Shown: positions 4,350 to 26,569 of the stretch, piece by piece
Numbering within the stretch: the stretch's first letter is position 1
How the letters are laid out: the number at the start of each line of letters is the position of its first letter
Made by a program: the position numbers and the translations under genes
Source of the DNA: Bacillota bacterium
GTDB taxonomy: Bacteria; Bacillota; Clostridia; Peptostreptococcales; Anaerovoracaceae
Direction of reading: 5' to 3'
Assembly: GCA_022787405.1 (NCBI GenBank)
Contig: JALFXR010000046.1
Location: forward strand, 2,365 to 66,364
DNA: 64,000 bases
The notes under the pieces: model-generated
Told to the model about the DNA's origin: nothing
Seen by the model: the letters and a program-made list of their open reading frames with translations, nothing else
The model's database searches: none

Positions 4350-5282
4350 CTACAGTGCCCCCGGTATCTTTTCGCTGTCCAGTATCTCTGAAAGAACTCT
4401 TCTTTCATCCTTTTCCTCTGCCCTTGCCTTACTGCTCAGCCGAACGCGGTGGCAGCAGACATGAAGAAATACGGTTCGTATATCGGCAGGTGTAACAAAG
4501 TCTCTTCCTTCCATATATGCGGCTGCTCTTGCCATCCTGCTGAGAGCCAGCGTGCCTCTCGGACTGATTCCCAGTGAAATCATTTCGTCCTCCCTTGTCC
4601 TTCGACAGAGTCCTGTCATGTATGCCATCACTTCTTCGGATATATGTACGCTGCCTGCCTCTTCCTGCATTTTCAGTATATCCTCAATGCCGCAGACTTT
4701 TTCTGCCTTTTCAAGAGGGTTTGTTTTCTGTCTGTCCCTCACCATGTCAAGCTCGCTTTCAAAGTCAGGGTATCCCATGGATATTTTGATAAGAAAGCGG
4801 TCAAGCTGGGCATGAGGAAGTCTCTGGGTTCCTGCACCGCCCTCGGGATTCTGTGTTGCGATTACCATAAAAGGTCTAGGCAGAGGATGGCTCTTACCGT
4901 CTACGGTGGCCTGCTTTTCTTCCATAACCTCAAGGAGTGCAGACTGGGTCTTGCTTGAGGTGCGGTTTATCTCGTCTGCAAGAAAGATATTGCAAAAAGC
5001 CGCTCCTTTCTCATATCGGAACCGACCGCTGTTTTTGTCATACATGGTAAAGCCGGTAATGTCCGATGGAACCACATCGGGTGTAAACTGTACACGCTTG
5101 TAGTCCAGTCCAAGGACCTTGCTGAAGGCAAGGGCCAGTGTGGTCTTACCCACGCCGGGCACATCCTCGATCAGCACATGGCCTTCCGACAGGAGCGCCA
5201 TGAGAACATTTCTTATGACTTCATCCTTTCCTTTTACTACAGCGCCTATTTCATCAAGAATTCTGTTTATCATATCTACCAT
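4350..5282 (-). CDS. moxR: MoxR-family AAA+ ATPase
   Basis: 310-aa ORF. Walker A is DVPGVGKTTLA, Walker B is FLADEINR, and the sensor region VIATQNPEGGAGTQRLPHAQLDRF is typical of MoxR. Confidence 0.9.
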   Translation of the reverse strand: MVDMINRILDEIGAVVKGKDEVIRNVLMALLSEGHVLIEDVPGVGKTTLALAFSKVLGLDYKRVQFTPDVVPSDITGFTMYDKNSGRFRYEKGAAFCNIFLADEINRTSSKTQSALLEVMEEKQATVDGKSHPLPRPFMVIATQNPEGGAGTQRLPHAQLDRFLIKISMGYPDFESELDMVRDRQKTNPLEKAEKVCGIEDILKMQEEAGSVHISEEVMAYMTGLCRRTREDEMISLGISPRGTLALSRMARAAAYMEGRDFVTPADIRTVFLHVCCHRVRLSSKARAEEKDERRVLSEILDSEKIPGAL

Positions 5283-6697
5283 TCCTTTCCGTAATTCTTC
5301 AGTTTTCCGTAATTCATGCCCATGGCCTTGTATCCCCCGATATCCTTGCCGTAGGCAAGGGTAAAGCGCAGCCTTACCACATCACCGTCCTGCACATAGG
5401 CTTTGCTCAGCCCGTAGGAGGAATATATGCCGTTGATGGAATACATCCAGCCGGAGCCCTGAGAAAAATCAAATTCTCCCAGCTCGTCTATGCCGGCGTA
5501 GCTTTCCCTGTCGAAGATGAGACCGTCTTCTTCGATTTTTTCTGCCAGATCTTCCGGTATGCTGAAGCCGCTGAGCATACCTTTCTTTTCCACTGCCGCC
5601 AGGTAAAAGCCGTTCTCGATGGTTCCGGCATGGCGACAGGAAAATCCGTTGCTTTTCAGGAACCTGTCCACCACGGATGCAAGACTCTCTCCGTCTTCTG
5701 CCTTCATGGTCTGCGGCCTGATGAGATAAGGAATTCCCACAGTGCCGGCTTCAAGGCTTATGATTATTTCTCCTGCTCCGGTTCGATACCACAGGGTCCA
5801 TACCCTGGTGACGGTGTACTGATAGACATCTCTTGCAGTCACCTGAATCTTGTTTTCTCCTTCCTTCAGATACACGCTGTAGGTCTGGCGGTCCATTTCG
5901 CCGATATAGTCTGCGGCCTTGCCGTTGCAGGTGACCTCCATGTTGCTGTAGGAAAGAGTTTGCCCCCGATAGTCTGTAAGCCATACATCAAAATTAAGTT
6001 CCTTCTGGTTATATGTGGCTCCGTCCTTCAGGTTTGTCTCGATGACGGGCATCTTTTCGGCAGGGGTTGTGCCTTCCGGTCTCTCGTACTGCACCTTTTT
6101 TATGTAGCTTCGGCGGTTTCCGCTTCCATCGATATAGCTTATCTGAAGGATGGTGGTTCCTTTGGTGCTCAAACTGATTTCAAAGCTTCCGCCGGATGCG
6201 GTAACCCGTGTTTCTTCGCCCGGAGCTGTGATGACCTTTATCTCCTGTATCTTTTCGTCAGGGCCAAGGCCCATTTCCTCAGAAAGCGCATCTTCAGAAA
6301 AAGATTCCTTCGCAAAGGCATCCTCCTCCAGATCATCCTTTAAAATCTCCTGCGGATTTCCTGGCGGTTTTTCGGGCAGATTGTCTGCCGTGCTGTTTTC
6401 TTTTCCTGAAGATGGGTTCTCGGCGGGTTCACTGTCTGCTTTTTCTTCCTTCTCCCGGCTATCTTCTGACTCATCCTCCCCTTTCGCAGCATAATTTTGA
6501 GCAGTGCCGGTTTCAGGCACTTTGTCTATCCATGGATATTCGGGCACAGTTTCTTCCATTTTTTTCACGCCAAAAACAGCACCTGTAATTAGTACAAGCG
6601 CCAGCAGCAGCGAGATATATTTCTTTATGGTTTTCTGTAATCCGGACATTTTTTCCTGCTCTTTCTGGCGTTTTTGGAGTGCTCTCCTGACAGTCAA
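5276..6697 (-). CDS. Membrane-anchored extracellular protein with C-terminal DUF4430 (transcobalamin-like) domain
   Basis: 473-aa ORF with an N-terminal TM segment (ISLLLALVLITGAVFGV) and an acidic Glu/Ser-rich linker. The C-terminal block GSGWMYSINGIYSSYGLSKAYVQDGDVVRLRFTLAYGKDIGG matches the DUF4430 signature. Confidence 0.7.
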   Translation of the reverse strand: MTVRRALQKRQKEQEKMSGLQKTIKKYISLLLALVLITGAVFGVKKMEETVPEYPWIDKVPETGTAQNYAAKGEDESEDSREKEEKADSEPAENPSSGKENSTADNLPEKPPGNPQEILKDDLEEDAFAKESFSEDALSEEMGLGPDEKIQEIKVITAPGEETRVTASGGSFEISLSTKGTTILQISYIDGSGNRRSYIKKVQYERPEGTTPAEKMPVIETNLKDGATYNQKELNFDVWLTDYRGQTLSYSNMEVTCNGKAADYIGEMDRQTYSVYLKEGENKIQVTARDVYQYTVTRVWTLWYRTGAGEIIISLEAGTVGIPYLIRPQTMKAEDGESLASVVDRFLKSNGFSCRHAGTIENGFYLAAVEKKGMLSGFSIPEDLAEKIEEDGLIFDRESYAGIDELGEFDFSQGSGWMYSINGIYSSYGLSKAYVQDGDVVRLRFTLAYGKDIGGYKAMGMNYGKLKNYGKEW

Positions 6698-6750
6698 AAT
6701 GGCCGAAGGGGCAGAAACTGCCCCGACGACCTGTTCTCATTGGTTTATTG

Positions 6751-9700
6751 TTATTTCGTCCACGTTCTCACGGCGTATTTACACTGTATAAGCAGAGTCT
6801 GTGCTACAAGGTTTCCATCCTTGTCGTAAATCTGGATACGAGCCTTGTAATAGTACTTGGTTCCCTTCTTGCCTGCAGTATTGATAAAGGACTTTGTTGT
6901 CTTAGTTATCCTTGCCTGATACTTTGAGGCTTTCTTGGTTGAACGATAGTACTTATACTTCACAGTATATCCCATGCTCTTTATTTCTTTTATGGCTGCT
7001 GCCGTGTCATCATCCACGGTCAGAGTAACCTTGATGTTCTTCTTGGAAGTCTTTGATGAGCGTGCTTTCAGGCTCATGTCTGAAACGAGCTCCTTGATTC
7101 TTTCGATGTTTGCTTCTTCATCGTTTACTTCCAGTCCCAGTGCTTCGCCGTCCACCAGTGCAAATGAGCTGAAGTGTTCTGTCTCAAATACGTAGTATGC
7201 AGTATTGCCGATAGTCTTTCTGCTGCCCGGCATCTGATTGAACTTATCTGCACTTTCAATATGCACTGCGGCAACCTTCTTATCGAGAAGCTTTGACGGT
7301 ATTTCAAGAGTTACAGTCACCTTGCCTGCAAACTTTGTGATGGTCTGCGCACCCGATTTCACGGTCAGATCAACTCTTGCAGCAGTATCTCCAAGAAGCT
7401 TCTTTTCGCTGTCGGTTGTATTCTTTTTCTCGATAATGATGGTCAGTTCGCTTCCTCTTGCCTGTGTGAGGGCGTCCTTGAGGGACGCGCTGTCCAGCTT
7501 GACGGTGCCTGCTTCCGTGGATACAGTAAGTGCCACATCCTGGCTCTTTGCAATATCTTTTAAGGTGCTGACATCCACATTCACTGTAACGGAGTTTGCC
7601 TGCTGGCCCTTGACATCCTTTGATACCTGAATGATGATATCATCGGATTTTGCTTCCAGAGCCTGCTTTTTGATTTCCTCAAGGGTATCCTTATCCACGG
7701 TTACGGAAGCGGCTCCTTCGCTGATGACCGGCTCAACTACAGCGGTAGTATCCTTCTTATCGGTGGTCACATTGCTTTCAGGCATCTGCTCTGAGCCTGC
7801 GATAGCGGTCATCTTATATTTTTCGGCAAGCTGATTGTATATCTCTGTATCTGCCACAGTGATGTATTTTTTCTGCTCATCATTCAGCTTGTTATATGCA
7901 TTATAGGCTGCTCTTGCAGCGCTTTCAGAAGAGGTTGACTTTAACGCTGCAAATTTATCCTTTGCATCGTCGATATCGGAGTAGAACTGAATCTGGTTTT
8001 CAGCTGCGGCAAGCTTTTCCACAAGTTTGCTGTCAAGTTTGGCCCGATCCGTACTGCTGAGGAGATTGTACACTTTTCTTACACTTGCCACCTCTTCCTT
8101 ATATTTCTTATATGTGGTGTATGTGATGGCATCTGCCGAAACCATTGTTTCAAGGGCATCTTTGACATAATCCAATTCGGTTTCATAAACCTTTATGGTA
8201 TATTTGGTTCCGGTATATGCTCTTGCTTCAGCTCCCTGATTGTTCATGGACGGCCACGAATATTCGCCGCATCCCACATACAGTGTGTCTCCCGCTTTTA
8301 CAGGAACAATACTTGTTCTTCTGTACAGAGCACTGTCACTGTTATATTTATTCAGGTATGTTCTTACCTGATAGTTCTTATTGGAAGCAGCAGGCGATAC
8401 CATAAGGTTTGCAGAACTGCTTCCCAGAATCAGTCCATAGTTTAAGGTGCTGCTGTCAAAAGACGGCATAAGTTTGCCTTTACTGATGGAAAGTGATTTA
8501 AGGCTGGTGTCTGAATTACCCCATGTTCCTCCCAGATCTTCTCCGAGATTTTGTGAGAACATGATATGGATTTCATCACCATCTTCCAGTTCACCGTTCT
8601 TATAGCTGAACTCGTTAAAGCCGTAGTTTGTGAACCAGTCGTTTAAGGTTCCCATCCAGCCTGAGCCGGATTCTCCGGAAAACTCTCCAAGGCGTTCTTC
8701 CGAATCATTCAGAACGAAGTCGCTTCCGTCTGCATTAACATTTCTCGGTACTTTGATGGATGCGATATAGCTTATGCTGTAATCATCCCAGCTTGAGGCC
8801 ACACCCTGACTTCCTGTAGACCAGTTACAGCCTTTCAGCTGCAGAGCTTTTAGTACAGCAGTCATCATGGTGTCGTTTTCGCAAAGGTCATAATTGCCGT
8901 CTATGAGAGTACCATACCATGCCGGCGCTCCATTGGAACCAGCCGTCTTGAAGGTCTGATTTTCAACAATGATGTGGACCTTTCCTACGACCTTGCCGTA
9001 GTCAGGAAGTGCCACACCTGAAGCCCCGCCGGTTTCCTGTTCATTCTTCTCTTCCTGTGCTTTTGTCTTAACAGCCGCCATAGCAGCGAGGGCATTTCTT
9101 CTGGCTTCGGAGATAGCCTCCACAGTAGCCGCAAGTTCAACTGCACTCAGTCCATCGACATGAGCACTGGCAAGTACCGCCCAGTTTTCATTGCTGTAGT
9201 CTTCCTGTTTATATTTGCTGAACGCTGAATCAACAGCATCCTTTGCTGATTGCTTCGCTTCCTGAAGTTCCTGCGCCACCTGTTCGCGAGTGGCTTCTTC
9301 GTATTCAGTCTTCGACATTGGAGACAACTGAATCTTCATACTTTCAGCTTCTATATTCGGCATTGTGAAATCGATGGAAATCCAAATCTCACTATACTCG
9401 TTATATCCGGTTTTTTCTGCAAGCTCCCAGTTTTCTCCGCCATCAAGAGAGTATTTTACCCAATACTGTCCTTCGTTTTGTGTCACAAGACGCCGCAGCG
9501 TTATCTCGTTTCCTGCATATGCAGTGATAGATCTCAGCTTTGCTATATCCCCACTGTTGCCAGAAGAAACTCCATTGGTTTTCACAGTATCAAAGATTCC
9601 TATGTTTTTTTCCGTTACTTTATTGAACCAAACCCATCCGGCGACATACTTTCCTGTTGCACTGCTAACCACCGCGCTATTATGTGTCCCTTGTACAAGA

Positions 9701-12612
9701 GTACCTTCTTCCACGCTGATTGTTTTTGTCGGCGGTATCTTAATGCTTGCTACCTCGAAAGCAGCATACATCTCGTTTTTCGCAATCTCAACCGATGAGA
9801 ACAGTTTTGTTTTCTCATATTCATTCAGATACCCATAGCCTCTTTGGAAAGTTTCTATCAGCTCCTTATGTGCATAGGTCACTTCCGTGGTTTCATCCGG
9901 CAGATTCTCTAAATATGACCTGATGTTTGAAACGCGAAGCTCATGATTCAGTGCCGTTGCCGACGCTTTTTTCAGTGCGGCATAATCTGTATCAAAGCTG
10001 TTCATCAGCTCTGCATAGGTGAGCCCTTCCTTTTTCTGATTTGTTACGAGAGTATTGTATTTTTCTACGAACCCAGCATAGTTGCTGTCCGTAAAATCAT
10101 AATCATGGTATTGTTCGTAGAAGGCCTTCGCTTCTGCCAGATTGCTCTTTCGGCTTTCTTCAATCAGTGCTGTTTCATCCTCTGCCGCAGTAACGTATAC
10201 TGATGCATATCCTGCAGCACGCATACCGTGATAATCACCTTTTTCAATTACCTCATTATAGCTTTCGTGATAATATGTGTCTTCGTTGGTATCGTAAAGA
10301 GCGATGATATACCAACCCGGTTCTCTGAAAATATATTCTGTTCTGCCGTCTGCATCCGTTACGGAATTAGTCTTCTTCATGATATCGGCAATCTCGGTTT
10401 TATTTTCAGACGGTTCGCTTACAAACAGTGTAAGACCCTCCGCAGACATGACTTCATCCTGATTGGTGAAATATGTGCCTTTTACTGAGCCCGCAATGGT
10501 TGTTTTCTCTCCTACCACAGCTTCTACCGGACTTTTCGTTATGGAAATGGCTCCTATGTAATCTCCCAGAATATTCAGGGTTTTTACTGAAGCATAAGCC
10601 ACAGTTGTGCCGCCGTTATCTGCAGCATATTCATATCTGCCGATTCCATACAGGCACTTTACAACGCGCACGTCTTCACCATTGTGAAGCTGGATGTTAT
10701 TCATGTCGTTTAGCGCATATATCCCTCGGAATTCGTCATTGATGTATACCATAAACCACGAATTGTTCGCATCCTGAACAGCCACCTGGCTATATCCGGT
10801 TGCAGGAGTTATCCATATGCCGTTTGTCTGGAACTGAAGCCCAGCTTTTGTAACCAGGCTGCTTATAGTAGTGCTTCCTGCTTCCAGACCGAACTCTTTC
10901 TTCATATGTATGCCGGTGCCTGTAATCGTTGCTTTTTCAGATAAACTGTAGGCATTATTGATGTACTCGAAAGAAACCGTGATATTTTGGTTGCTAACAA
11001 GCCCATTTACTGCTGCCTTAAATTTTTTTAACGCAGTATCAAAATAGAATACGGTATTGAAATCTTCTTTGCTCCCGCCGATTTTGTTGCCTGGGCTTGT
11101 TTTAATCGTATACTCGCACTTTTCCTTGAACGCATTATATTCAGCCACATAGCTGTCCCACGAATCCGCTGTATATGTACCATTCTGATTATTTCCTAAC
11201 GCTTCCGGACTATATTCTTCGATAAAGATTCTTGCTTCTTCTAAATACGGGAGATAGTGGTTATTGTAATGGTCCTCATAGGTGGATTTTTTCACCATAG
11301 CGGACGCTGCAGCCGAGTCTGTTTTATCAGAAAAAATCCCATCTTTATAAACGGCAACTGCGATTGCCTTTGATAAAGCGTCACACTTTTCCTGCGCAGA
11401 TTTATCAGTTTCAGATACTTCATTTTTTTCAGTAGGTTCACCGTTTTCATACAGGGAATTCAAATAGTCTTGTCCTTCTTTTAATGCTTTCGCATACGGA
11501 GCCCATGTAACTGCTGTTGTCGTATTTTCCGTTACTATATTTTCACCGGAATAGGAAACATCAATTTTACCGATTTTATTGTCGTTAGTCATCCATCTAT
11601 ACCTTGCGTTTAGAACCTCATACAGCTCCGTCGCATTGACCTGCGTGGTCGGGATGAGGTCGGCGATGGCGGCTTCAAGCAATGCAGCCGCAGCATCAAC
11701 TTGATTCTGCTTAACGCCTGCTGCTAATGCACGCGTTCCGCCCTCTCCCGCAGGATAGATGGTATTCACCCTACCCATTGCAGCTTTATACAGTGCCCAG
11801 AAGCTATCTATTCTCCACTCCTGTTTGGTCCTTGAATTATAGGTGTAGAACAACTTCACTGCATTTCGGTCCGCCTTGATGGTCGCGTCGTTCCGCAACC
11901 TGTCGACAAGGTCTGTAATCGTGGTCTTGCCGTTATAGCGGTCAACCGTGTGGTAATATGCAGTGTCCGTTTCAAGCGAAGGTGCATTTTTGAGCACTGC
12001 GTTCAATTTATCAGTGTTAATTATGACAGGTGTAGCTTCAATCAAAAGTGCATAACGCAAATCATTGTTATTTTCATCTGTTCTAATAAAGGCATAATAA
12101 TAAGTTGCATTTTCAGCGGTGACAAATTCTTGAGAACGATACCCTTTTTCCGTTAAGTCGCTTGTTGTGACAGAATATTTTTGAAAATTAGTATCATCAT
12201 ATTTGAAGGCTCCACCAGTTGTTGTTACTTGTACGGCTCCTTTTCCACCAGCAAGTAAGTGATTATGATACAGTGTAATATTACTTCCAGTATCACTAAG
12301 GGCCCGAAACGTTTTACCAGGTATGGAAATAAAATATGTTTTGAGAACCTGAGCATTTGTACCGGTTGTGTCATTGCTACTTGTTTGACAGTTGATAATA
12401 AGATTTTCTGGCGTTGTGATCTCTTTGATACTGTAGCCGTCTGTGACTGTTATTCCTGATATGCCCAGCTTTATCGTGCAATCATACGAATCTGCCGCCC
12501 AGGCATCTTCCAGTCCCCACTGACCGATGCCAAGCCCTGTGAACACCATCATAAATGTCAGCGTCAGCGCCAGTATCTTCTTTATGGAACTGTTTTTCTT
12601 TACTTTTTCCAT
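6751..12612 (-). CDS. Giant secreted surface protein (1953 aa) with DUF4430 and cadherin-like beta-sandwich domains
   Basis: Signal peptide MEKVKKNSSIKKILALTLTFMMVFTGLGIG...AWA. Internal DUF4430-like block GSGWMGTLNDWFTNYGFNEFSYKNGELEDGDEIHIMFSQNLGEDLGG. It is followed by SLKSLSISKGKLMPSFDSSTLNYGLIL...MVSPAA (cadherin-like beta-sandwich pattern). The C-terminal end has YYYKARI Fn3-like repeats. Confidence 0.7.
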   Translation of the reverse strand: MEKVKKNSSIKKILALTLTFMMVFTGLGIGQWGLEDAWAADSYDCTIKLGISGITVTDGYSIKEITTPENLIINCQTSSNDTTGTNAQVLKTYFISIPGKTFRALSDTGSNITLYHNHLLAGGKGAVQVTTTGGAFKYDDTNFQKYSVTTSDLTEKGYRSQEFVTAENATYYYAFIRTDENNNDLRYALLIEATPVIINTDKLNAVLKNAPSLETDTAYYHTVDRYNGKTTITDLVDRLRNDATIKADRNAVKLFYTYNSRTKQEWRIDSFWALYKAAMGRVNTIYPAGEGGTRALAAGVKQNQVDAAAALLEAAIADLIPTTQVNATELYEVLNARYRWMTNDNKIGKIDVSYSGENIVTENTTTAVTWAPYAKALKEGQDYLNSLYENGEPTEKNEVSETDKSAQEKCDALSKAIAVAVYKDGIFSDKTDSAAASAMVKKSTYEDHYNNHYLPYLEEARIFIEEYSPEALGNNQNGTYTADSWDSYVAEYNAFKEKCEYTIKTSPGNKIGGSKEDFNTVFYFDTALKKFKAAVNGLVSNQNITVSFEYINNAYSLSEKATITGTGIHMKKEFGLEAGSTTISSLVTKAGLQFQTNGIWITPATGYSQVAVQDANNSWFMVYINDEFRGIYALNDMNNIQLHNGEDVRVVKCLYGIGRYEYAADNGGTTVAYASVKTLNILGDYIGAISITKSPVEAVVGEKTTIAGSVKGTYFTNQDEVMSAEGLTLFVSEPSENKTEIADIMKKTNSVTDADGRTEYIFREPGWYIIALYDTNEDTYYHESYNEVIEKGDYHGMRAAGYASVYVTAAEDETALIEESRKSNLAEAKAFYEQYHDYDFTDSNYAGFVEKYNTLVTNQKKEGLTYAELMNSFDTDYAALKKASATALNHELRVSNIRSYLENLPDETTEVTYAHKELIETFQRGYGYLNEYEKTKLFSSVEIAKNEMYAAFEVASIKIPPTKTISVEEGTLVQGTHNSAVVSSATGKYVAGWVWFNKVTEKNIGIFDTVKTNGVSSGNSGDIAKLRSITAYAGNEITLRRLVTQNEGQYWVKYSLDGGENWELAEKTGYNEYSEIWISIDFTMPNIEAESMKIQLSPMSKTEYEEATREQVAQELQEAKQSAKDAVDSAFSKYKQEDYSNENWAVLASAHVDGLSAVELAATVEAISEARRNALAAMAAVKTKAQEEKNEQETGGASGVALPDYGKVVGKVHIIVENQTFKTAGSNGAPAWYGTLIDGNYDLCENDTMMTAVLKALQLKGCNWSTGSQGVASSWDDYSISYIASIKVPRNVNADGSDFVLNDSEERLGEFSGESGSGWMGTLNDWFTNYGFNEFSYKNGELEDGDEIHIMFSQNLGEDLGGTWGNSDTSLKSLSISKGKLMPSFDSSTLNYGLILGSSSANLMVSPAASNKNYQVRTYLNKYNSDSALYRRTSIVPVKAGDTLYVGCGEYSWPSMNNQGAEARAYTGTKYTIKVYETELDYVKDALETMVSADAITYTTYKKYKEEVASVRKVYNLLSSTDRAKLDSKLVEKLAAAENQIQFYSDIDDAKDKFAALKSTSSESAARAAYNAYNKLNDEQKKYITVADTEIYNQLAEKYKMTAIAGSEQMPESNVTTDKKDTTAVVEPVISEGAASVTVDKDTLEEIKKQALEAKSDDIIIQVSKDVKGQQANSVTVNVDVSTLKDIAKSQDVALTVSTEAGTVKLDSASLKDALTQARGSELTIIIEKKNTTDSEKKLLGDTAARVDLTVKSGAQTITKFAGKVTVTLEIPSKLLDKKVAAVHIESADKFNQMPGSRKTIGNTAYYVFETEHFSSFALVDGEALGLEVNDEEANIERIKELVSDMSLKARSSKTSKKNIKVTLTVDDDTAAAIKEIKSMGYTVKYKYYRSTKKASKYQARITKTTKSFINTAGKKGTKYYYKARIQIYDKDGNLVAQTLLIQCKYAVRTWTK

Positions 12613-12730
12613 TTCTTTTTTTCCTTTCTTAATATTTCCCTCCGGTCCGGTCAGGCTCCATTGCCTTCCCGTCCTTTGCGATTGATCTATGTAAACACTA
12701 TTTTTCGTGTAGTGAACTTTCTGTCAGAAA

Positions 12731-13123
12731 CTATGTCCCTCCGCTGTTCTGTTCCATTTCTGCCGCTGCTTCTGCAGCTGCCTTTTCTTCTCTCAGCTGT
12801 CTGCGTCTTTCCGCCTGACGGGCCTTTCTTTCCGCCTTCTTCTGCTCTTTGATGAGATGACTTTCTGCCACCGGTCTTGTGCCTGCCTTCTCCAGCATCC
12901 GGTACCACGGTCCGAAGCGTGCTTTTAAGATCACGTCATATACCAGATCGTCTCTCGTTGGTTCTCTGCCGTTTTCCTCGGTAAAGTCTCTCACAAGCTG
13001 CAGAAGCTCCTCGTCGCTCATGGCCTTGTACGGTTCTCTCAGCTCGTTAAGCAGCTTCTGTTTCTCATGTTCGGTCATGGTCTTGCTTTCTGCAATTTCC
13101 TTTTTTGTCATCTGCTTTGTCAT
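12731..13123 (-). CDS. Small protein with a single homing-endonuclease-associated (HNH_repeat-like) module and a Lys/Arg/Glu-rich tail
   Basis: 130-aa ORF. SDEELLQLVRDFTEENGREPTRDDLVYDVILKARFGPWYRMLEKAG resembles the PF18780-type repeat (..G R.Pt..d......y..rFGsW..AL..AG). A GGGAG RBS lies ~10 nt upstream. Confidence 0.45.
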   Translation of the reverse strand: MTKQMTKKEIAESKTMTEHEKQKLLNELREPYKAMSDEELLQLVRDFTEENGREPTRDDLVYDVILKARFGPWYRMLEKAGTRPVAESHLIKEQKKAERKARQAERRRQLREEKAAAEAAAEMEQNSGGT

Positions 13124-13203
13124 ATATGTAACTCCCGCTGACCTCGGGGGCGGCTTTTTCTTCTATGCACCGCCCCTTTAAGGATGAAAAGTTTTCGAGT
13201 AAT

Positions 13204-13231
13204 AAAAAAACGATGATTTTAAAACCATCGC
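13204..13231 (-). terminator. Intrinsic terminator (expression platform of the proximal riboswitch-like leader)
   Basis: Minus strand reads cgatggttttaaaatcatcg followed by TTTTTTT. It lies ~80 nt upstream of the 130-aa CDS start. Confidence 0.5.
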
Positions 13232-13379
13232 TTTTGTGACATATGAAATACAGGCAGACAGCTTACGCCATCTCCCTTTCTTTCGGCTCCCCGACCCTTT
13301 CTTTATCTTGGTTTCAGGGGTTTGTAGGTCTTCTGACTTTTACATTCAGATGCAATCTTTTCAATTGCACCAGCGCACG

Positions 13380-13600
13380 CATTTCGCCTTCTCTCCGGGC
13401 CATGACAGCCCTTCCAATGACCGGCTTTCGCCGTATGCAGATTACCCTGCACAGAAACGGTACTTTGTAATCACAGCTACTAAGGGAGCGTGCATCTTCG
13501 CCAGTATGCACCTGGCTGCCGCTCCCACGTGTCCAGGAATTTCACCTGATTCCCTTGTTCAGCAAGGAACAAGAATGCGTGTCCGAAGCGTAATCGCATC
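13380..13600 (-). promoter_or_regulatory. Cobalamin-riboswitch-like element, proximal copy of a tandem pair (divergent)
   Basis: Minus strand contains ACAAGGGAATCAGGTGAAATTCCTGGAC (conserved 5' core). An inserted hairpin (GGGAGCG...CGCTCCC) follows, then TAGCTGTGA, GGTCATTGGAAGGGC and a B12-box-like GGCCCGGAGAGAAGGC. The match is less canonical than the other two copies. Confidence 0.4.
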
Positions 13601-13653
13601 TTCGGGTCGCGCATTTGCCACAAAAGCCATTTTCCTATTCAATTATTCATCGA

Positions 13654-13684
13654 AACAAAAATAGACTGCCTTCTGCGGCAGTCC
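13654..13684 (-). terminator. Intrinsic terminator between the two tandem riboswitch-like elements
   Basis: Minus strand reads GGACTGCCgcagaaGGCAGTCtATTTTTGTTT (7-8 bp GC-rich stem plus U tract). Confidence 0.6.
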
Positions 13685-13694
13685 ATGCATTCTC

Positions 13695-13925
13695 GTAATA
13701 TCCCGGCATCCCGGTTCTATTATCGCTCGGTGCCCCTCCGCAAATCCCCGCCGCTCTAGCAAAGGATTCTTCTCTTCGGTTACCCTCACACTGAATGTTT
13801 CTTCTGCCTCAGAAGTGAAATCATTCGAGCCACAACTCGTCTCCCGTCTCGTCGCCATCGGCGCATTACGGTTGCTGGCCAGCCGGGGAATCTCACCCCA
13901 CTTCCGTTAGTTATGCTCATTTCGT
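13695..13925 (-). promoter_or_regulatory. Cobalamin riboswitch, distal copy of the tandem pair
   Basis: Minus strand GGAAGTGGGGTGAGATTCCCCGGCTGGCCAGCAACCGTAA aligns almost base for base with the core of the canonical copy at 15.6 kb (GGAAGCAGGTGAGAATCCTGCACGGTCCCGCCACTGTA). A B12-box-like GAGACGGGAGACGAG lies downstream. Confidence 0.6.
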
Positions 13926-13954
13926 TATATATTCTATTTTTTCTCAGTAATTAA

Positions 13955-13983
13955 ATGCTATCACACCGACTTCATAAAGTCAA
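13955..13983 (-). promoter_or_regulatory. Sigma-A-type promoter for the tandem riboswitch leader
   Basis: Minus strand reads TTGACT, 17-nt spacer, TAGCAT, with an extended -10 TG (gTGaTAGCAT). It lies ~25 nt upstream of the riboswitch core. Confidence 0.45.
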
Positions 13984-14171
13984 CATATTTTACCAAATCA
14001 AGAGGGGTTTTTTTGCTTGTACAATTGCACTGCCTGCTGCTGTGTTTTCCGTCATAAATGCCGCCTCCTTTTCTTTCGCTTTTTTATTGTCAGAATGCAA
14101 AACTCCCGCCTCACATGGGAATGCTTTGATATCTCGCCCTTCCCACCGGCAGGAGTTTTCTTTACTCGCAG

Positions 14172-14339
14172 TTATATATTTTTAATTTGCTCTTCTTCCC
14201 TTTTCACTCTGATGTGAGCTATGCAGTGCTGCACGAAGTTATCGGTTTCATCCTTTTGAGTGAATCTTCTCATGACATTTCTCTCGTTATCTCTATAGTT
14301 TCTCTTAATTTTTTCCGATATGTTCTTTAACAGTTTCAT
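14172..14339 (-). CDS. Small basic hypothetical protein (55 aa, below the ORF-track cutoff)
   Basis: ATG preceded by GGGAGG at 6 nt. Reads MKLLKNISEKIKRNYRDNERNVMRRFTQKDETDNFVQHCIAHIRVKREEEQIKNI. I recognise no homology. Confidence 0.3.
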   Translation of the reverse strand: MKLLKNISEKIKRNYRDNERNVMRRFTQKDETDNFVQHCIAHIRVKREEEQIKNI

Positions 14340-18735: not shown

Positions 18736-20196
18736 TTATTTCAGTATTTTCCAAGTTCCTTTCTTATTTGAGCCCACCCGTACAAGGTACCCTTTCTCTT
18801 TTAGCTCTTTAATTAGTCGTGCTACCGTAGCTCTTGAACAACCTAATTTCTCCATAAGTTCTGCAGTAGTAATATGTGGATCCAATTGCAAAATTTCTAT
18901 AAGTTTCTGCGACTTGTTATTTATTGTCTCATTTATTGTCTCATTTATTGTCTCATCTGACACCGATACAGTTTCTAATGTCAACACTACCCTTGCAGGG
19001 TCGGATAACTCTTGAATGACGGGCTTCGCAAAGCCGTTTTCTTCCCATGTGCTGTAAATATCGCACAGACCGGAGCCGGAGCGTTCTCCCACATTTATTA
19101 GAGAAAACATATTGAAGATTCTTGCGTTTCGTGTGTCGCTTACCCCTCCTGCTATGGCGTCCTCTATGCTGACTCGAAAGGTTCCCGGATTGGATATGGT
19201 GATTTTGCTAAAGTCTTTATCGATGACAATTCCCTGCCGCCCGTAATAATCGGCGTGAATCAGTGCATTGGCCAATGCCTCTCGGATGGCTGCGTGTATA
19301 GGTGTGTCATCGACTCTCATCATCTGTTCATCCAGCTTGAAAGGTTTTTTCACATCGGCGGTCAGTTTCCCGATGATTCTAAAATAAAAATCAAAGATAT
19401 TGCCGCTCCAGTCTCCGTCACTACAGCATACCCTGTCTGACCAGCGGGTATCCGTAGCCTTCCGCTCTCTGTAGTCAAGGAAGTAATTCGGTAATTCGTC
19501 CATGATCGTGATAAAATCGCCAAAGAACAGAAGTCCTGCAAGGGTCGGATGTAATTCTCCGTCTAAACCTTTCTTTGCTGCACCGATTTTCAGAAGAAAT
19601 TCTTCGTCGCTGAGCTTTGTCCAAATATGGTTTGGCTTACGATTGGAAAACATTCTGCGATAGCCAAGGAGCGCTTCGTGATTCAAATCAGAGAGCCTAA
19701 GAGTTTCCACAACCTTGCTGTCCGCACTTTCTTCCGCTTGGTCGCGAAGCATGGCAAGCACTTCTTCCCTCTTACAACGATAGTCACCTTCTCCATTGCG
19801 TCGATAGCTGCCGGAAAACATATCTTTCCCAATATAGACCGGTCGGCTCTGCCTTGCCGCCCGGGGAACCTCCATGACGATGATTTTTTTCTTATCATAA
19901 TCAACGGTATAAATGTTTTCGTTCAGCAAAATATTCTCGCTTATTTTCTGTGGGTTGTTCAAAGCATTCCAAAGCTCCGAAATCATCTTTTCCGTATTTT
20001 CAACGCCGATTGGTATCAACTTCTTTGTCTGTGCATCTTCTTGCACACCAAGGAGGATGACCCCGCCATCTGTGTTGGCAAACGCCGAATAAGTTTCCCA
20101 CATGCTCTGCGGCACTCCGCCTGTTGCCGTCTTGACCTCTATGTGTCCGCTCTCTTTCTCGGATGATAAAATTCTATGGATGTCCACCATGTACAA
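18736..20196 (-). CDS. AlbA_2 (Schlafen-like) / HATPase_c_4 / C-terminal wHTH protein (often annotated as putative DNA-binding or RecG-like)
   Basis: 486-aa ORF. N-terminal ESGHIEVKTA...FANTDGGVILLGV (AlbA_2). Central REALANALIHADY...ISNPG...NARIFNMF...GSG (HATPase_c_4-like). C-terminal HTH TTAELMEKLGCSRATVARLIKELKEKGYL. Confidence 0.7.
   Translation of the reverse strand: MYMVDIHRILSSEKESGHIEVKTATGGVPQSMWETYSAFANTDGGVILLGVQEDAQTKKLIPIGVENTEKMISELWNALNNPQKISENILLNENIYTVDYDKKKIIVMEVPRAARQSRPVYIGKDMFSGSYRRNGEGDYRCKREEVLAMLRDQAEESADSKVVETLRLSDLNHEALLGYRRMFSNRKPNHIWTKLSDEEFLLKIGAAKKGLDGELHPTLAGLLFFGDFITIMDELPNYFLDYRERKATDTRWSDRVCCSDGDWSGNIFDFYFRIIGKLTADVKKPFKLDEQMMRVDDTPIHAAIREALANALIHADYYGRQGIVIDKDFSKITISNPGTFRVSIEDAIAGGVSDTRNARIFNMFSLINVGERSGSGLCDIYSTWEENGFAKPVIQELSDPARVVLTLETVSVSDETINETINETINNKSQKLIEILQLDPHITTAELMEKLGCSRATVARLIKELKEKGYLVRVGSNKKGTWKILK
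18919..18954 (-). repeat. Perfect 12-bp x 3 in-frame tandem repeat (encodes INET x 3)
   Basis: Plus strand atttattgtctc occurs three times back to back. It translates to ETINETINETIN in the linker before the wHTH of the 486-aa protein. Confidence 0.85.
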
Positions 20197-22946: not shown

Positions 22947-23783
22947 TTATAATCCCATCATTTCCTTAACGACTCTATCCGACAGTTTAATCATTCCCAC
23001 AAGTACAAGCATATTGAATATGAGCTCACCCAGGTACGACCATACCATCGATACAGCTGCCGCATTCTCATCGATTACCGGCGGTGATGCAGCAAACATG
23101 GAGAAAATTATGCATGCAAGGATAATTATGGCGCCTTCCATACAGACGGAAACATAGGATTTGATAAATGATATTCCTATGTGCTGTGAGGGTTCGCCTG
23201 CAACAGTTGAGAGAGGTATAGGTGCTATTGCCGTATACATATACAGTCTGAAAAAACGCCCGTACACAGTCATAATAATGATAAAGGAAAGCACCGTGAT
23301 TACCAGGCTGCCAATCAGCGTTACGGCCCACAGCGGTATACTCTCAAAAAAGCCGCAGTCCTCAATGGCCGTTATCATCACATCCGGCAGGCTCATTCCC
23401 TGAGTCCGTCCCAGCCCTGCGGTCCTCATAATTGTACTTATAACTCCCTGCAATATCTCAAAAATTGCAAGCATCAGTTCCATCCCGTAAGTAATCATTC
23501 CTTTTGCTATGATAAACCTTATAAACAGCTTCAGTGCATGCTCCGGTTTTTTTACGTCAGCAAAGCTGCCGCAGGTTTTCATCATTCCGACAAGAAAAAA
23601 GAGCACCAGCAAAGCAACTCCGATTGCCTGCAGTGCTCCGTGAATGTCAACGATTACTTGCCATATTGTACCACCTTTAAAATTCTCCGGCTCTTCCGTG
23701 AGCAGCACCCATATTTCCGACAGTTTTTCATTCCAGGTCGTAAGTGCATTCTGTAGGTTCTGCACCACCCAGTTGTCTGACAC
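22947..23783 (-). CDS. Polytopic T4SS channel protein (VirB6/TrbL-like, CD0415/CD1112-type)
   Basis: 278-aa ORF with at least 5 TM segments. It sits in the position conserved between Maff2/VirD4 and PrgI/VirB4 in this ICE family. GTG start after an AGGAGGTG RBS. Confidence 0.6.
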   Translation of the reverse strand: MSDNWVVQNLQNALTTWNEKLSEIWVLLTEEPENFKGGTIWQVIVDIHGALQAIGVALLVLFFLVGMMKTCGSFADVKKPEHALKLFIRFIIAKGMITYGMELMLAIFEILQGVISTIMRTAGLGRTQGMSLPDVMITAIEDCGFFESIPLWAVTLIGSLVITVLSFIIIMTVYGRFFRLYMYTAIAPIPLSTVAGEPSQHIGISFIKSYVSVCMEGAIIILACIIFSMFAASPPVIDENAAAVSMVWSYLGELIFNMLVLVGMIKLSDRVVKEMMGL

Positions 23784-23874
23784 GTTATCACCTCCTAGTG
23801 TAGTAGTTATAACGGATTGACCTTTTTTCGTGCATAATAAAAAGCCCGGAATATTAATCCGAGCTAGGTAATCA

Positions 23875-24618
23875 TCATTCTTCTTCTTGTTTTTTCTTTG
23901 GAAAACATAGGCTTAAGTTAGTATGCCTTTCAAGCGAATGCTTATCTTCTTTTATATATTTCCAGCTTGAAAGATAATCTCCACCAACAGAGAAATCAGA
24001 TTCTGATATGAATTCCTTAAATCCTTCTGTATCAGATTTATATTTACGCACAAAATTGTAAGAATCATTTTCCTTTTCTTCATCAGAGCTGTTCAGTTTA
24101 TTATATAGAACATGATCAATATTGCAAGACATATAATAAGCAGAATACGGGATTTCTCCCCATATTACAGGTGTCTCTGACAGCTTATCAATGTTCTTGC
24201 TTTTAACAAGATTTCTTTCAATTATGCCCTGCTTATTACGAGTTTTTATTGAATTCAGGGAATACATTGTTTTTTCCACTGTTTCATCTTCTATTATGCA
24301 ATCTTCTGATACATAAGCTCCATCCATATCAATAATATGAATGACCTGCTGAAAATGGACTTTATTAAAGTGATTGTTCCTAGCATATCCTATTATCTCT
24401 TCCGTTACTTTCTTTAGGATATTAGACGCATTATTCCCTGTTCTGCTTGTAATATCTCCATGTGTAACATGAACAAACACTCTGTTACTGTCAAAAATAT
24501 TATTCAACAACAATTCCAGTGCATCCTGGTCAGAAGGTCCTTCCACTATGATAAATACAATTTTCTTACGAGCCAATGCTCTCACCAGCCTCTCTGAATG
24601 CCAATGCAATCTCAGCAT
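23875..24618 (-). CDS. Toprim-like (DUF4276/DUF4435/RloB-like) putative nuclease, partner of the upstream ATPase
   Basis: 247-aa ORF. N-terminal KKIVFIIVEGPSDQDAL (conserved Glu of Toprim-type folds) and a later acidic motif VIHIIDMDGAYV (DxD-like). Overlaps the ATPase stop (a GTG/TTG start nearer 24585 is possible). A weak terminator follows at ~23845-23870. Confidence 0.5.
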   Translation of the reverse strand: MLRLHWHSERLVRALARKKIVFIIVEGPSDQDALELLLNNIFDSNRVFVHVTHGDITSRTGNNASNILKKVTEEIIGYARNNHFNKVHFQQVIHIIDMDGAYVSEDCIIEDETVEKTMYSLNSIKTRNKQGIIERNLVKSKNIDKLSETPVIWGEIPYSAYYMSCNIDHVLYNKLNSSDEEKENDSYNFVRKYKSDTEGFKEFISESDFSVGGDYLSSWKYIKEDKHSLERHTNLSLCFPKKKQEEE

Positions 24619-26029
24619 TGTTTGTCAGATCATAAACAGCCTCATCCTGTTCTCCCAGTATAATATCTCTGTAGTAGAAGTCTCTAAGATTATTGTTCTC
24701 TTTAACGTTAGCAAGTCTGATATATCTGTTATCAGGATTTGTTGTAGTAAATGCCACAAAACCCCTGTCAATAGTCTCTAATGGCCTGAGGTTATGGGAA
24801 GTAAATATCAGCTGCCCTTTTCCCTTTTCAGATATTATCCTCAGCAGTTCTCCTAAAAGATACTCAAACACTCCTGAGTCAAGCTCATCAATTGCAACGG
24901 TTATTGACTTCTGGTTATAAACGACAACAAGTAGCTGGAGAATCGAAACAATCTTTTTTATTCCTTCAGACTCATATTTTAAAGGTATTTCCTTGCTGTT
25001 CTTATTTGAAACAAGTTCTATTCTTTTCCCGGCAGACCCATTCGGCATAAGCTGACTGCCAAGATCTTTTACAGCAATTGTGAGCCCCGGAACGATCTTC
25101 TCAAGCACTATGTTCATATTTTCAATTACAGCTTTTGTAACATGAAACATCTCTTCAGGTATGACTGAAGGTTCTTCAATAGGCACAGCAATTGTTCCCA
25201 ATGTTCCCGTTTTCTTTCCCTGAATTTTGAAGACAAGAGGTTGCGCATTTAAGCTTATCAGACCCGAATTCGCTGTATTTATCACAAACAGTTCAGAATT
25301 GCCAAACTTGACTAAAGACTCAATCAAAGCCAAGTAATGTGTTAATTCTTTTAGTTCTTCATCATTAGTTCTGCTCTGCTCACTGTATTTTTTTCTGATT
25401 GCATTCAATAAATCTTTTGAAAACAAAAACGATTTTGATGTCTTCTGTGACAATTTTTTTGAAACAAGAAGGTCTGTCGAGGTTTCTTTATTTCCGCCAA
25501 CTAGTAAATCATATTTGGCTTTAGGGACAAACACTGCAGTTGACTCTGTATCAATTATTCGTCCCATTCTAAGTTTTCCACTTGGAGTCTTTGCCTGACA
25601 TTTTAACACTTCATTTAAGACTTTGGCTTTATATCGTTCCCTTTCTTCTATTGCACTCTCTGTGTTTCCGCTATCCTGCACAGTCTCTCTCATTATGGTC
25701 AGGCTATATACAACAGGATATACTGTTTCATCCAGAATAACATCAAAAGAATACTCAATTTCCGAACCGTCAGAATCAACATTGATATAGTCAGCAAATT
25801 TATCTGGAATTTCAAATTCACATAATGCGCCCTTAAGCAACTCCAATGCATCAATCAACGCAGTTTTTCCTGAGCCGTTCTGGCCATATAAACCTAAAAC
25901 GCTTGCCTTGAAGTTTTTTCTACTATTGACAAATGATATTTCGCCTTTGTTAACATTTTTAAAATTCCTGATTGAAATATTCGTTATCCTAACATTAGAC
26001 TCCATAACATGAACCTCCAAATTGTACAT
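24566..26029 (-). CDS. ABC-type (AAA_21/AAA_15-like, OLD/AriA-like) ATPase
   Basis: 487-aa ORF. Walker A is LYGQNGSGKTAL, the signature-like motif is YESEGIKKIV, Walker B is ITVAIDELDSGV, and the H-loop is IFTSHN. A long helical insertion separates the two halves. The likely true start is MESNVRITNISIRNFKN at ~26005, with a GGAGG RBS. Confidence 0.75.
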   Translation of the reverse strand: MYNLEVHVMESNVRITNISIRNFKNVNKGEISFVNSRKNFKASVLGLYGQNGSGKTALIDALELLKGALCEFEIPDKFADYINVDSDGSEIEYSFDVILDETVYPVVYSLTIMRETVQDSGNTESAIEERERYKAKVLNEVLKCQAKTPSGKLRMGRIIDTESTAVFVPKAKYDLLVGGNKETSTDLLVSKKLSQKTSKSFLFSKDLLNAIRKKYSEQSRTNDEELKELTHYLALIESLVKFGNSELFVINTANSGLISLNAQPLVFKIQGKKTGTLGTIAVPIEEPSVIPEEMFHVTKAVIENMNIVLEKIVPGLTIAVKDLGSQLMPNGSAGKRIELVSNKNSKEIPLKYESEGIKKIVSILQLLVVVYNQKSITVAIDELDSGVFEYLLGELLRIISEKGKGQLIFTSHNLRPLETIDRGFVAFTTTNPDNRYIRLANVKENNNLRDFYYRDIILGEQDEAVYDLTNNAEIALAFREAGESIGS

Positions 26030-26197
26030 AATAATATACTACTACGATTATCAAAGAAAATCAATAAAAATTTATTTATTTCTATACATTTTGTACCGTT
26101 TTTGCACATTTTATGCATGTTTGTTCTGAATATCACCATAATCATTCATTTATCATTTTGTTTGTCTTCCCCTAAATACTACTTGTTGTTTCGCTTT

Positions 26198-26569
26198 CTA
26201 TCCTGTAATCATATTCAGGATTTCCTTGGTAAAGGTAATGATCACACCACCGGCAAGGGTCAGAAAACCATTGGCACGCTGCGACGGATCATGGGACTTA
26301 AGAGATAAACCAACCTGCATAACTCCAAGCCCCAGCAATATAATGCCGATGGCTCTGATTAAAGCAAAAATGAAGTCTGATAGGTTATTTACAACTGCTA
26401 ATGGGTCTCCCCCTGCTCCAAATGCCGTCTGGGGGACTGCGGCAGCAATTCCATAGCAGAAATAGAGTACCCATTTAACTTTTTTCAGTGCGATTTTTTC
26501 GCTCATTTTTCCTTTTTTCTCTTTCATTTTCTTAATCCTCCCATTCATTTTTTTCTTCCAGTTCCTCAC
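26198..26569 (-). CDS. Maff2-family (VirB2-like) small membrane protein
   Basis: 123-aa ORF. The hydrophobic hairpin IRAIGIILLGLGVMQVGLSLKSHDPSQRANGFLTLAGGVIITF resembles the Maff2 pattern. It lies immediately downstream of virD4. Confidence 0.6.
   Translation of the reverse strand: MRNWKKKMNGRIKKMKEKKGKMSEKIALKKVKWVLYFCYGIAAAVPQTAFGAGGDPLAVVNNLSDFIFALIRAIGIILLGLGVMQVGLSLKSHDPSQRANGFLTLAGGVIITFTKEILNMITG

Follow-up and report, generated by a model that had tools for sequence, protein, structure and literature searches.

An ABC ATPase and Toprim-like gene pair inserted in the conjugation operon of a Tn1549-like element: a putative two-gene immune cassette outside the recognised families

We analysed a stretch of 64,000 nucleotides (nt) from a Bacillota bacterium of the family Anaerovoracaceae (GenBank assembly GCA_022787405.1, contig JALFXR010000046.1, positions 2,365 to 66,364 of the forward strand), below termed the window, and a block of 2403 bp within it that lies inside the type IV secretion system (T4SS) operon of an integrative and conjugative element (ICE). 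The block is an insertion and not a part of the ICE backbone. It carries two genes that form an obligate pair: the first encodes an ATP-binding cassette (ABC) ATPase of the AAA_15/AAA_21 (Rad50/SMC-like) clade, and the second a small protein with Toprim-like motifs. By analogy with characterised systems, we consider it reasonably likely that a Tn1549-like ICE of the mating-pair formation class FA (MPF_FA) carries the block as cargo, that it was acquired horizontally as a two-gene cassette of the immune type, and that it encodes a Toprim nuclease controlled by the ATPase. A defence function is what we infer from the architecture of the pair and from its genomic context. In principle the pair is nothing new, yet its family is widespread and goes unrecognised by current tools.

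Boundaries and composition of the insert

Database loci compared with the window are labelled L001, L008 and so on. To gather copies of the ICE, the sequence of the VirB6-like TrbL_2 protein at the flank was looked up for exact matches, and many metagenomic copies came back. The site is empty in L008, L011 and L013, where the TrbL_2 protein is identical and the Maff2-like and TrbL_2 genes are 31 bp apart, and it is occupied by the ATPase-Toprim pair in L009, L010 and L015. In BLAST alignments of the window with the three empty-site ICEs (97-98% identity), homology ends at 26199 and restarts at 23795; the insert therefore spans 23796-26198. It substitutes 20 bp of the empty spacer between Maff2 and TrbL_2, and the ribosome-binding site of TrbL_2 is kept at the junction. 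A first-pass annotation, made by a model from the sequence alone, had described an AT-rich block of about 2.4 kb between genes that are normally adjacent. The adjacency, the approximate size and the composition are borne out; the limits it gave, 23784-26197, are refined by the exact junctions that came from the comparison with ICEs lacking the insert, a comparison that it had proposed.

The GC content of the insert is 0.348 versus 0.444 for the window, and it is the lowest among all segments of this size: 284 other 2403-bp segments of the sequence have a mean of 0.444 +/- 0.025 and a minimum of 0.39. A search of the insert for repeats found neither terminal inverted or direct repeats nor a target duplication, and no transposon-like signature was seen. 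There is no recombinase gene within the insert, and an Rfam scan of it in E-value mode detected no RNA family and no retron-type noncoding RNA.

The backbone of the window, DUF3801-VirD4-Maff2-VirB6-VirB3(PrgI)-VirB4-CHAP, agrees with the order virD4-maff2-virB6-virB3-virB4 described for Faecalibacterium/Tn1549-like ICEs (PMC12084326); a recombination breakpoint between maff2 and virB6 was reported in the same work (PMC12084326). The exact-sequence look-up of the 123-amino-acid (aa) Maff2 open reading frame (ORF) of the window returned no record, and the true Maff2-like gene is probably the 109-aa version.

Gene starts and the leader

The two overlapping ORFs proposed in the first-pass annotation exist on the minus strand and do overlap, but their lengths of 487 and 247 aa had to be corrected to 479 and 233 aa. 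For the ATPase, ATG 26005 is the most likely start codon: a GGAGG motif is found 8 nt upstream, and the database proteins that are 100% identical to this product have 479 aa. The longest ORF of the small gene runs from ATG 24618 and encodes 247 aa. The most likely start of this gene is TTG 24576, which gives 233 aa, as most homologues begin MARKKIVFVIVEG and gene callers on identical DNA report a protein of 233 aa. With the corrected starts, the overlap of the two genes is 11 nt and not 53.

The AT-rich upstream region and the downstream hairpin noted previously are both present (Table 1), the latter directly 3' of the stop codon of the small gene. In other contexts (L005, L016, L017 and L019), homology to the cassette starts at about 26103-26163. 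The leader contains a weak promoter-like site at 26136-26108, of a class that is not enriched over shuffles: 14 sigma-70-like sites were counted versus 9.9 +/- 3.4 expected in shuffled sequence. A promoter of the cassette's own was rejected as an established feature, since consensus sites are not above chance.

The large protein is an ABC ATPase

The large protein exceeds the Pfam cut-offs for both AAA_21 (56.1 bits, cut-off 27, E-value 8e-15) and AAA_15 (44 bits, cut-off 32.1, E-value 3e-11). The sequence motifs by which it had been recognised initially, namely Walker A GQNGSGKT, the signature-like ESEGIKK, Walker B IDELDSG and the H-loop TSHN, are all in the translation and are invariant or nearly so in homologues. 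Across 33 ATPase homologues of 61-93% identity, Walker A, the SxG signature, Walker B with the D-loop, and the H-loop are invariant. The AlphaFold2 model is of moderate quality (pLDDT, the predicted local distance difference test score, of 68). A Foldseek search with this model retrieves the heads of Rad50, SMC and retron/Septu PtuA proteins at E-values of 6.5e-13 to 5e-8, in agreement with the ABC assignment. A search of the ATPase profile against PDB sequences, AriA included, gave nothing at E<=0.01.

Among the PADLOC models, the best match of the ATPase is AbiLi (PDLC02335, 1.1e-28), followed by AriA (3e-17 and 2.9e-15), mad3 (2.5e-15), HEC-01A (3.8e-9) and GajA (1.9e-5). The AbiLi match is not diagnostic, because the unrelated PDC-M12A ATPase scores higher on the same model (1.5e-39). 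The PADLOC AriA models cross-match many AAA_15/21 ATPases, and AbiLi scores better than they do on the window ATPase.

The C-terminal ~75 residues of the ATPase (about 405-479; window 24566-24790) are among the most conserved of the family, with many invariant positions, yet their pLDDT is 30-40. This segment might fold only upon partner binding or oligomerisation.

The small protein is a putative Toprim-superfamily member

The small protein was compared with 113 diverse relatives that are 32-51% identical to it. In these, G13, D83, D85, G86, K125, K168 and N220 are invariant, and at least 90% of them keep E12, D41, T43, R121, N122, N152 and H155. The motifs FIIVEGPSDQ and IIDMDG, which had suggested a Toprim-like protein in the first place, are present in the translation and are nearly or fully invariant in homologues. 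The AlphaFold2 model (pLDDT 85.6, predicted template modelling score 0.83) has the order strand-helix-strand-helix-strand, an insertion with a long helix, a fourth strand, and a helical C-terminal domain. In this model the Glu is placed right behind strand 1 and the DxDG motif right behind strand 3 (strands 19-25 and 89-97 in the 247-aa numbering), which is the placement described for Toprim domains (PMC12065111), where the Glu follows the first strand and the DxD the third strand of a four-stranded parallel beta/alpha fold.

No model of Pfam, PADLOC, NCBIfam or PHROGs matches the window protein at a reportable level, the PHROGs scan being uninformative. The recurrent Pfam families in the 113 relatives are Toprim (41 proteins), DUF4276 (28), OLD-like_TOPRIM (19) and DUF3226 (7), all below threshold, and every other Pfam family appears in at most two proteins. 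The recurrent weak PADLOC matches are mad4 (17/113) and several HEC-01B models. On the window protein itself, mad4 has an E-value of 0.0028; DUF4276 reaches 14 bits, with its cut-off at 30.2. Fold comparison gave weak PDB matches to gyrase, topoisomerase II and PARIS (E-values 0.02-0.13, TM-score about 0.2), and the best viral match (BFVD) is an RloB-like phage protein (E-value 3.8e-3, probability 0.96). An hhalign comparison of the family profile with a 246-aa protein of L001, which is the HNH protein PtuB of a Septu system, found nothing.

In our reading, the conserved residues and the predicted topology point to a member of the Toprim superfamily from the OLD/DUF4276/RloB neighbourhood, with a helical C-terminal domain of its own and uncovered by current models. 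The Toprim-like nature put forward in the first-pass annotation is supported by the position of Glu and DxD at the predicted ends of strands 1 and 3, with the caveat that the fold searches gave no significant Toprim match. Its description of the family as unassigned fits the scans of Pfam, PADLOC-DB v2 and NCBIfam, where no threshold is passed, and the RefSeq name, which is 'hypothetical protein'.

Size, pairing and distribution of the family

The family of the small protein contains at least 1271 proteins in 90% clusters. At 50% identity it has 1803 representatives at E<=1e-3 and 635 at E<=1e-30, nearly all of ~230 aa. In a scan of GTDB with one genome per species, relatives were found in 340 species; the locus counts given below refer to the best 80 loci. 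In 79/80 loci the ATPase gene immediately precedes the small gene, with an overlap or a gap of at most 6 nt, the exception being a 5'-truncated remnant without the ATPase (L093). With close relatives excluded, the ATPase and the Toprim protein diverge in a correlated way (Spearman 0.48, p 1.5e-5). In each of the 27 other loci with full flanks, the pair has a lower GC content than the DNA on either side. At least two T4SS genes are nearby in only three of the 80 loci.

Most hosts belong to the Lachnospiraceae, the Oscillospiraceae or other Clostridia; further hosts include Erysipelotrichaceae, Negativicutes, Sphaerochaeta, Fretibacterium and Ruminobacter/Aeromonadales. In phage and plasmid records, the small protein is always a 'hypothetical protein' beside an 'AAA family ATPase'.

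The surroundings of the pair vary. In L001-L004 it is found among a Septu system, a SIR2-STAND gene, an ISL3 transposase, AbiH and a PD-T4-4-like ATPase. It is preceded by two serine recombinases in L097 and L098 and by a pair of AAA and S8 peptidase genes in L099 and L100, and in L096 it is isolated within a stretch of housekeeping genes, beside a group II intron.

Two other loci deserve mention here. A 3.8-kb contig binned to Bacteroides stercoris (L018) has the pair, with a small protein of 78% identity, beside VirB4/PrgI-like genes of a Firmicutes-type ICE; it reflects either cross-phylum carriage or a binning error. The defence island of L001 includes, at 12451-14312, a PD-T4-4-like AAA_15 ATPase followed by a 200-aa protein without a Pfam or PADLOC match, which may be another effector outside the known families.

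Comparison with known ATPase-Toprim systems

The stand-alone partners described for AAA_15/21 ATPases are OLD-Toprim, DUF4435 (AriB of PARIS), RloB (AbiLii of AbiL) and DUF4276 (Mad4) (PMC11464382). In PARIS, an AriA hexamer sequesters AriB and frees it upon sensing of a phage protein, and AriB then cleaves tRNA (PMC11464382). The window pair resembles PARIS in having an AAA_15/21-type ABC ATPase gene followed by a gene for a stand-alone Toprim-type protein, in its two-gene composition and in its location on mobile elements. The ATPase matches AriA models, and the same logic of a sensor that releases a nuclease would be plausible by analogy. In contrast to PARIS, no DUF4435 (PF14491) or AriB match is among the recurrent families of the 113 partner-family members, the partner has 233 aa versus about 35 kDa for AriB, its C-terminal domain is different, and a PARIS complex chain reached an E-value of 0.13 in the Foldseek search with the partner.

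AbiL of Lactococcus shares with the window pair the best PADLOC match of the ATPase (AbiLi), the two-gene operons on mobile elements of Gram-positive bacteria, and the RloB-like protein as the best viral fold match of the partner, below threshold. However, none of the 113 partner-family members has a hidden Markov model (HMM) match to AbiLii or RloB (PF13707). By profile, the partner comes closest to the MADS Mad3-Mad4 pair and to HEC-01 (DUF4276 in 28/113, best 2e-4), and the ATPase matches mad3 and HEC-01A. These partner matches are below any reporting threshold and span the first three strands only. The window pair is flanked by T4SS genes only, with no methyltransferase or other mad genes, and is not within an Hma system.

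OLD and GajA of Gabija have the same domain logic of an ATPase with a Toprim domain, and OLD-like_TOPRIM is weakly matched by 19/113 partner members, whereas the window pair and 79/80 relatives are two separate polypeptides and not one fusion. There is also no GajB/UvrD-like gene adjacent to the window pair, and the GajA model matches the ATPase at 1.9e-5.

Pairs of AAA and TOPRIM_OLD proteins have been validated as antitoxin and toxin (PMC10440598). The NetFlax pairs AAA(D29):TOPRIM_OLD (D44/D60) have the same architecture as the window pair, and in experiments their Toprim protein acts as a toxin that the ATPase neutralises. Homology to RloB is described for D44, unlike the window partner family when judged by HMM. 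The family members WP_013483399, WP_050822422, WP_066717493 and others, and also the species names, have no match among the NetFlax entries listed.

Membership of PARIS, AbiL, MADS and OLD/Gabija was rejected: the partner models are unmatched or the architecture is different. Because membership of these systems fails, the pair is classed as a new partner family of the known ATPase-Toprim kind. This accords with the suggestion of the first-pass annotation that the small protein may be a new variant, as it fits neither the DUF4435 nor the RloB models and reaches DUF4276 below threshold only.

Disrupted copies of the pair

Two ICE copies that are otherwise near-identical to the window have an intact ATPase gene and independently disrupted Toprim genes. 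In L012, a 1-bp deletion at the window-equivalent position 24115 cuts the Toprim protein to 160 aa, and in L014 the N-terminus of the Toprim protein is gone with a 169-bp deletion (window-equivalent 24396-24564). The Lachnospira eligens ATCC 27750 megaplasmid (L101, NC_012780.1, 4986-6386) carries an orphan ATPase gene of 58% identity next to an IS256 transposase; tblastn found no Toprim gene on this megaplasmid, and none is annotated downstream of the ATPase. An intact Toprim gene without the ATPase is found in 0/80 loci. Retention of the ATPase with loss of the Toprim gene is as expected if the Toprim protein is toxic and is restrained by the ATPase.

Proposed function and alternative explanations

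From its architecture, conservation, context and loss pattern, the pair most likely acts like the systems of the PARIS, AbiL, MADS3-4 and HEC-01 kind, with the ATPase as sensor and neutraliser and the Toprim protein as nuclease effector. To the extent that computation allows, the reading of the block as a defence or exclusion cargo in the first-pass annotation is supported. We infer that the small protein is a nuclease and that the ATPase neutralises it, and likewise infer a trigger, a substrate and a protective phenotype, as follows. Translational coupling would yield both proteins together. The ABC ATPase would oligomerise, keep the Toprim protein inactive and serve as the sensor. A trigger, which may be a phage, another invading element or a product of one, would cause an ATP-dependent rearrangement by which the Toprim protein is freed or activated. 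The latter could be a metal-dependent nuclease that acts on tRNA or other RNA, as in PARIS, or on DNA, as in OLD/Gabija; cleavage of nucleic acid would then either stop the growth of the infected cell or destroy the invader.

Several observations weigh against this interpretation. Pfam Toprim scores 17 bits on the small protein with a cut-off of 23.1. A Foldseek search of PDB with the confident model of this protein (pLDDT 85.6) found nothing at E<1e-3, and the searches of PDB chains with the protein and with the 113-member profile gave chance-level matches only. An hhalign comparison with Geobacillus RNase M5, the sequence of which came from a PDB alignment, pairs IVEGxSD of the family with the VVEGKDD motif of the enzyme, but the Glu motif alone is aligned (15 columns, E-value 0.011). 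Many homologous loci are outside recognisable defence islands. The family is rare in GenBank phages (one of 50,697 records, a C. difficile phage-plasmid), in IMG/VR (14 contigs) and in sequenced plasmids (five records). HEC-01, the PADLOC candidate nearest in architecture, which pairs an ABC ATPase with a TOPRIM protein, gave no protection in E. coli assays. Finally, the number of disrupted copies is small, their sequences stem from metagenome assemblies, and neutral decay or assembly error could account for them.

The pair could instead be a plain toxin-antitoxin module that stabilises the ICE or other carrier DNA by addiction and has no immune role. We regard this as unlikely. It would agree with the behaviour of AAA and TOPRIM_OLD pairs as toxins and antitoxins in neutralisation assays, with one AAA-neutralised pair that gives no phage protection and with the lack of defence by HEC-01, and the presence of the pair on mobile elements beside recombinases and the loss of the Toprim gene would both suit a toxin and its antitoxin. 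However, an ABC ATPase of ~480 aa with invariant catalytic motifs would be a costly antitoxin, and in PARIS, the relative that has been characterised, this arrangement works as a sensor. Several homologues lie within dense defence islands, and many loci are on chromosomes, where no mobile element that they could stabilise is obvious. Addiction and abortive-infection roles can, moreover, coexist.

An equally improbable explanation is an exclusion system directed against other mobile elements and not against phages. Conjugative or plasmid DNA entering the cell would be sensed by the Rad50/SMC-like ATPase and cut by the Toprim nuclease, which would shield the resident ICE from competitors in the manner of Wadjet or Lamassu. 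The structural model of the ATPase is indeed nearest to Rad50/SMC heads, the cassette is within a conjugation operon, and related ICEs hold alternative cargo in the same slots. Yet 77/80 homologous loci are not beside T4SS genes, and the pair has neither a long coiled coil nor a kleisin or Mre11-like partner, its helical insert being only ~80 aa.

A role as a RecF/RecR-like or SbcCD-like accessory of DNA repair or recombination on mobile elements is very unlikely. RecR is a Toprim protein, the ATPase fold is Rad50-like, and RecF heads the NCBIfam matches of the ATPase. This match covers the N-terminal 50 residues only (E-value 4e-6) and is far under the cut-off, with 26 versus 172 bits. The distribution of the pair is sporadic, with horizontal transfer and low GC content, its neighbours include defence islands, and its closest profile affinities are to defence families.

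An accessory or core part of the type IV secretion and conjugation machinery, as might be suggested by a place within the T4SS operon and a strand shared with the genes on both sides, is effectively refuted because the near-identical ICEs L008, L011 and L013 exist without the pair; the pair also occupies a different gap in L005, 77/80 loci have no T4SS nearby, and a terminator-like hairpin closes the cassette.

Cargo slots in the T4SS operon

The intergenic gaps of the T4SS operon of this ICE appear to be swappable cargo slots. In L005, the gap between Maff2 and VirB6 (3302-5462) is filled by the PADLOC candidate PDC-M12 (A 8e-91, B 9e-33), and the ATPase-Toprim pair is in the gap between VirB6 and PrgI (6572-8702). 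As the pair of L005 lies one gap further on, the same cassette uses different operon gaps in different ICEs. The VirB6-PrgI gap of L011, from which the pair is absent, contains a gene for a 114-aa nucleotidyltransferase (6912-7256; NTP_transf_2; PDC-S09, 7e-21). The more diverged ICE L016 has ~4.3 kb of extra cargo (250-4580) between Maff2 and the pair, upstream of the latter, which includes a MerR regulator, a 331-aa protein without a Pfam match, EcsC and DUF4230.

A further gap of the window, between VirB4 and the CHAP hydrolase, is occupied by a minus-strand gene (18736-20196) for a 486-aa protein with Schlafen/AlbA_2, HATPase_c_4 and winged helix-turn-helix domains. The gene is present in L008, L010, L012 and L013 and absent from L009 and L015, where VirB4 abuts CHAP. 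The protein has weak PADLOC matches to pAgo-associated and SIR2-PNTD models (E-values about 1e-11). The first-pass annotation had regarded the ATPase-Toprim block as cargo, and the empty-site ICEs and the presence of T4SS genes near only 3/80 homologous loci speak for this view.

A broader proposal, which we put forward as tentative, is that the pair represents a large unnamed ABC-ATPase/Toprim immune family, forming a fifth partner class beside OLD, DUF4435, RloB and DUF4276, and that the T4SS gaps of Tn1549-like ICEs are dedicated exchange slots for defence modules. The family would comprise ~1800 clusters at 50% identity from anaerobic habitats of gut and rumen, distributed over Bacillota, Spirochaetota, Synergistota and Gammaproteobacteria. 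The slots would be Maff2-VirB6, VirB6-VirB3 and VirB4-CHAP, and the modules the pair, PDC-M12, PDC-S09 and the Schlafen/AlbA_2 gene. If the gaps are indeed dedicated exchange slots, immunity would travel with the conjugation genes and would possibly be co-expressed with them.

The pair, if active, would be a two-gene system that is common in anaerobes of the gut and rumen and invisible to Pfam, PADLOC-DB v2 and NCBI annotation. It would add another partner family, with its own C-terminal domain, to the ABC-ATPase and Toprim immunity represented by OLD, Gabija, PARIS, AbiL and MADS3-4. Near-isogenic ICEs with the pair, without it or with a broken copy are natural material on its cost, toxicity and protection. 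The conjugation operon of a major gut ICE family appears to tolerate and exchange small intergenic cargo, which bears on the spread of defence genes among gut species.

Table 1. Features of the inserted cassette and its flanks (window coordinates; residues of the small protein are in the 233-aa numbering).
Feature	Coordinates	Strand	Details
Whole inserted cassette (leader, ATPase gene, Toprim-like gene, terminator)	23796..26198	minus	2403 bp
AT-rich upstream region with ribosome-binding site GGAGG, possibly with a promoter	26006..26198	minus	GC content 0.254 over 26030-26198
ABC-type (AAA_15/AAA_21, Rad50/SMC-like) ATPase gene	24566..26005	minus	479 aa; Pfam above threshold
ATPase motifs			Walker A G41-T48; signature E345-S-E-G348; Walker B D373-E374; H-loop H404
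ATPase helical insert			residues about 162-238 (~80 aa, all-helical, between the two ABC lobes)
Toprim-like putative nuclease effector gene	23875..24576	minus	233 aa; conserved residues and AlphaFold2 topology
Catalytic candidates of the small protein			E12, D83, D85
Other conserved residues of the small protein			D41, R121, N122, K125, N152, H155
Terminator-like hairpin followed by a T-run	23843..23865	minus	8-bp stem, 5 G-C pairs, tail TTTTATTATG
Flank: Maff2-like small membrane protein gene, ICE T4SS operon	26198..26569	minus	109 aa as called in relatives
Flank: VirB6-like TrbL_2 gene, ICE T4SS operon	22947..23783	minus	Pfam TrbL_2 on identical proteins

Other genes of the window

Two long minus-strand ORFs of the window, of 1953 aa (6751-12612) and 415 aa (50089-51336), have no Pfam match at E<=1e-5. 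The adjoining giant ORFs of the ICE encode a SNF2-helicase protein of 2388 aa and a SpaA/TQ-ester surface adhesin of 2626 aa.

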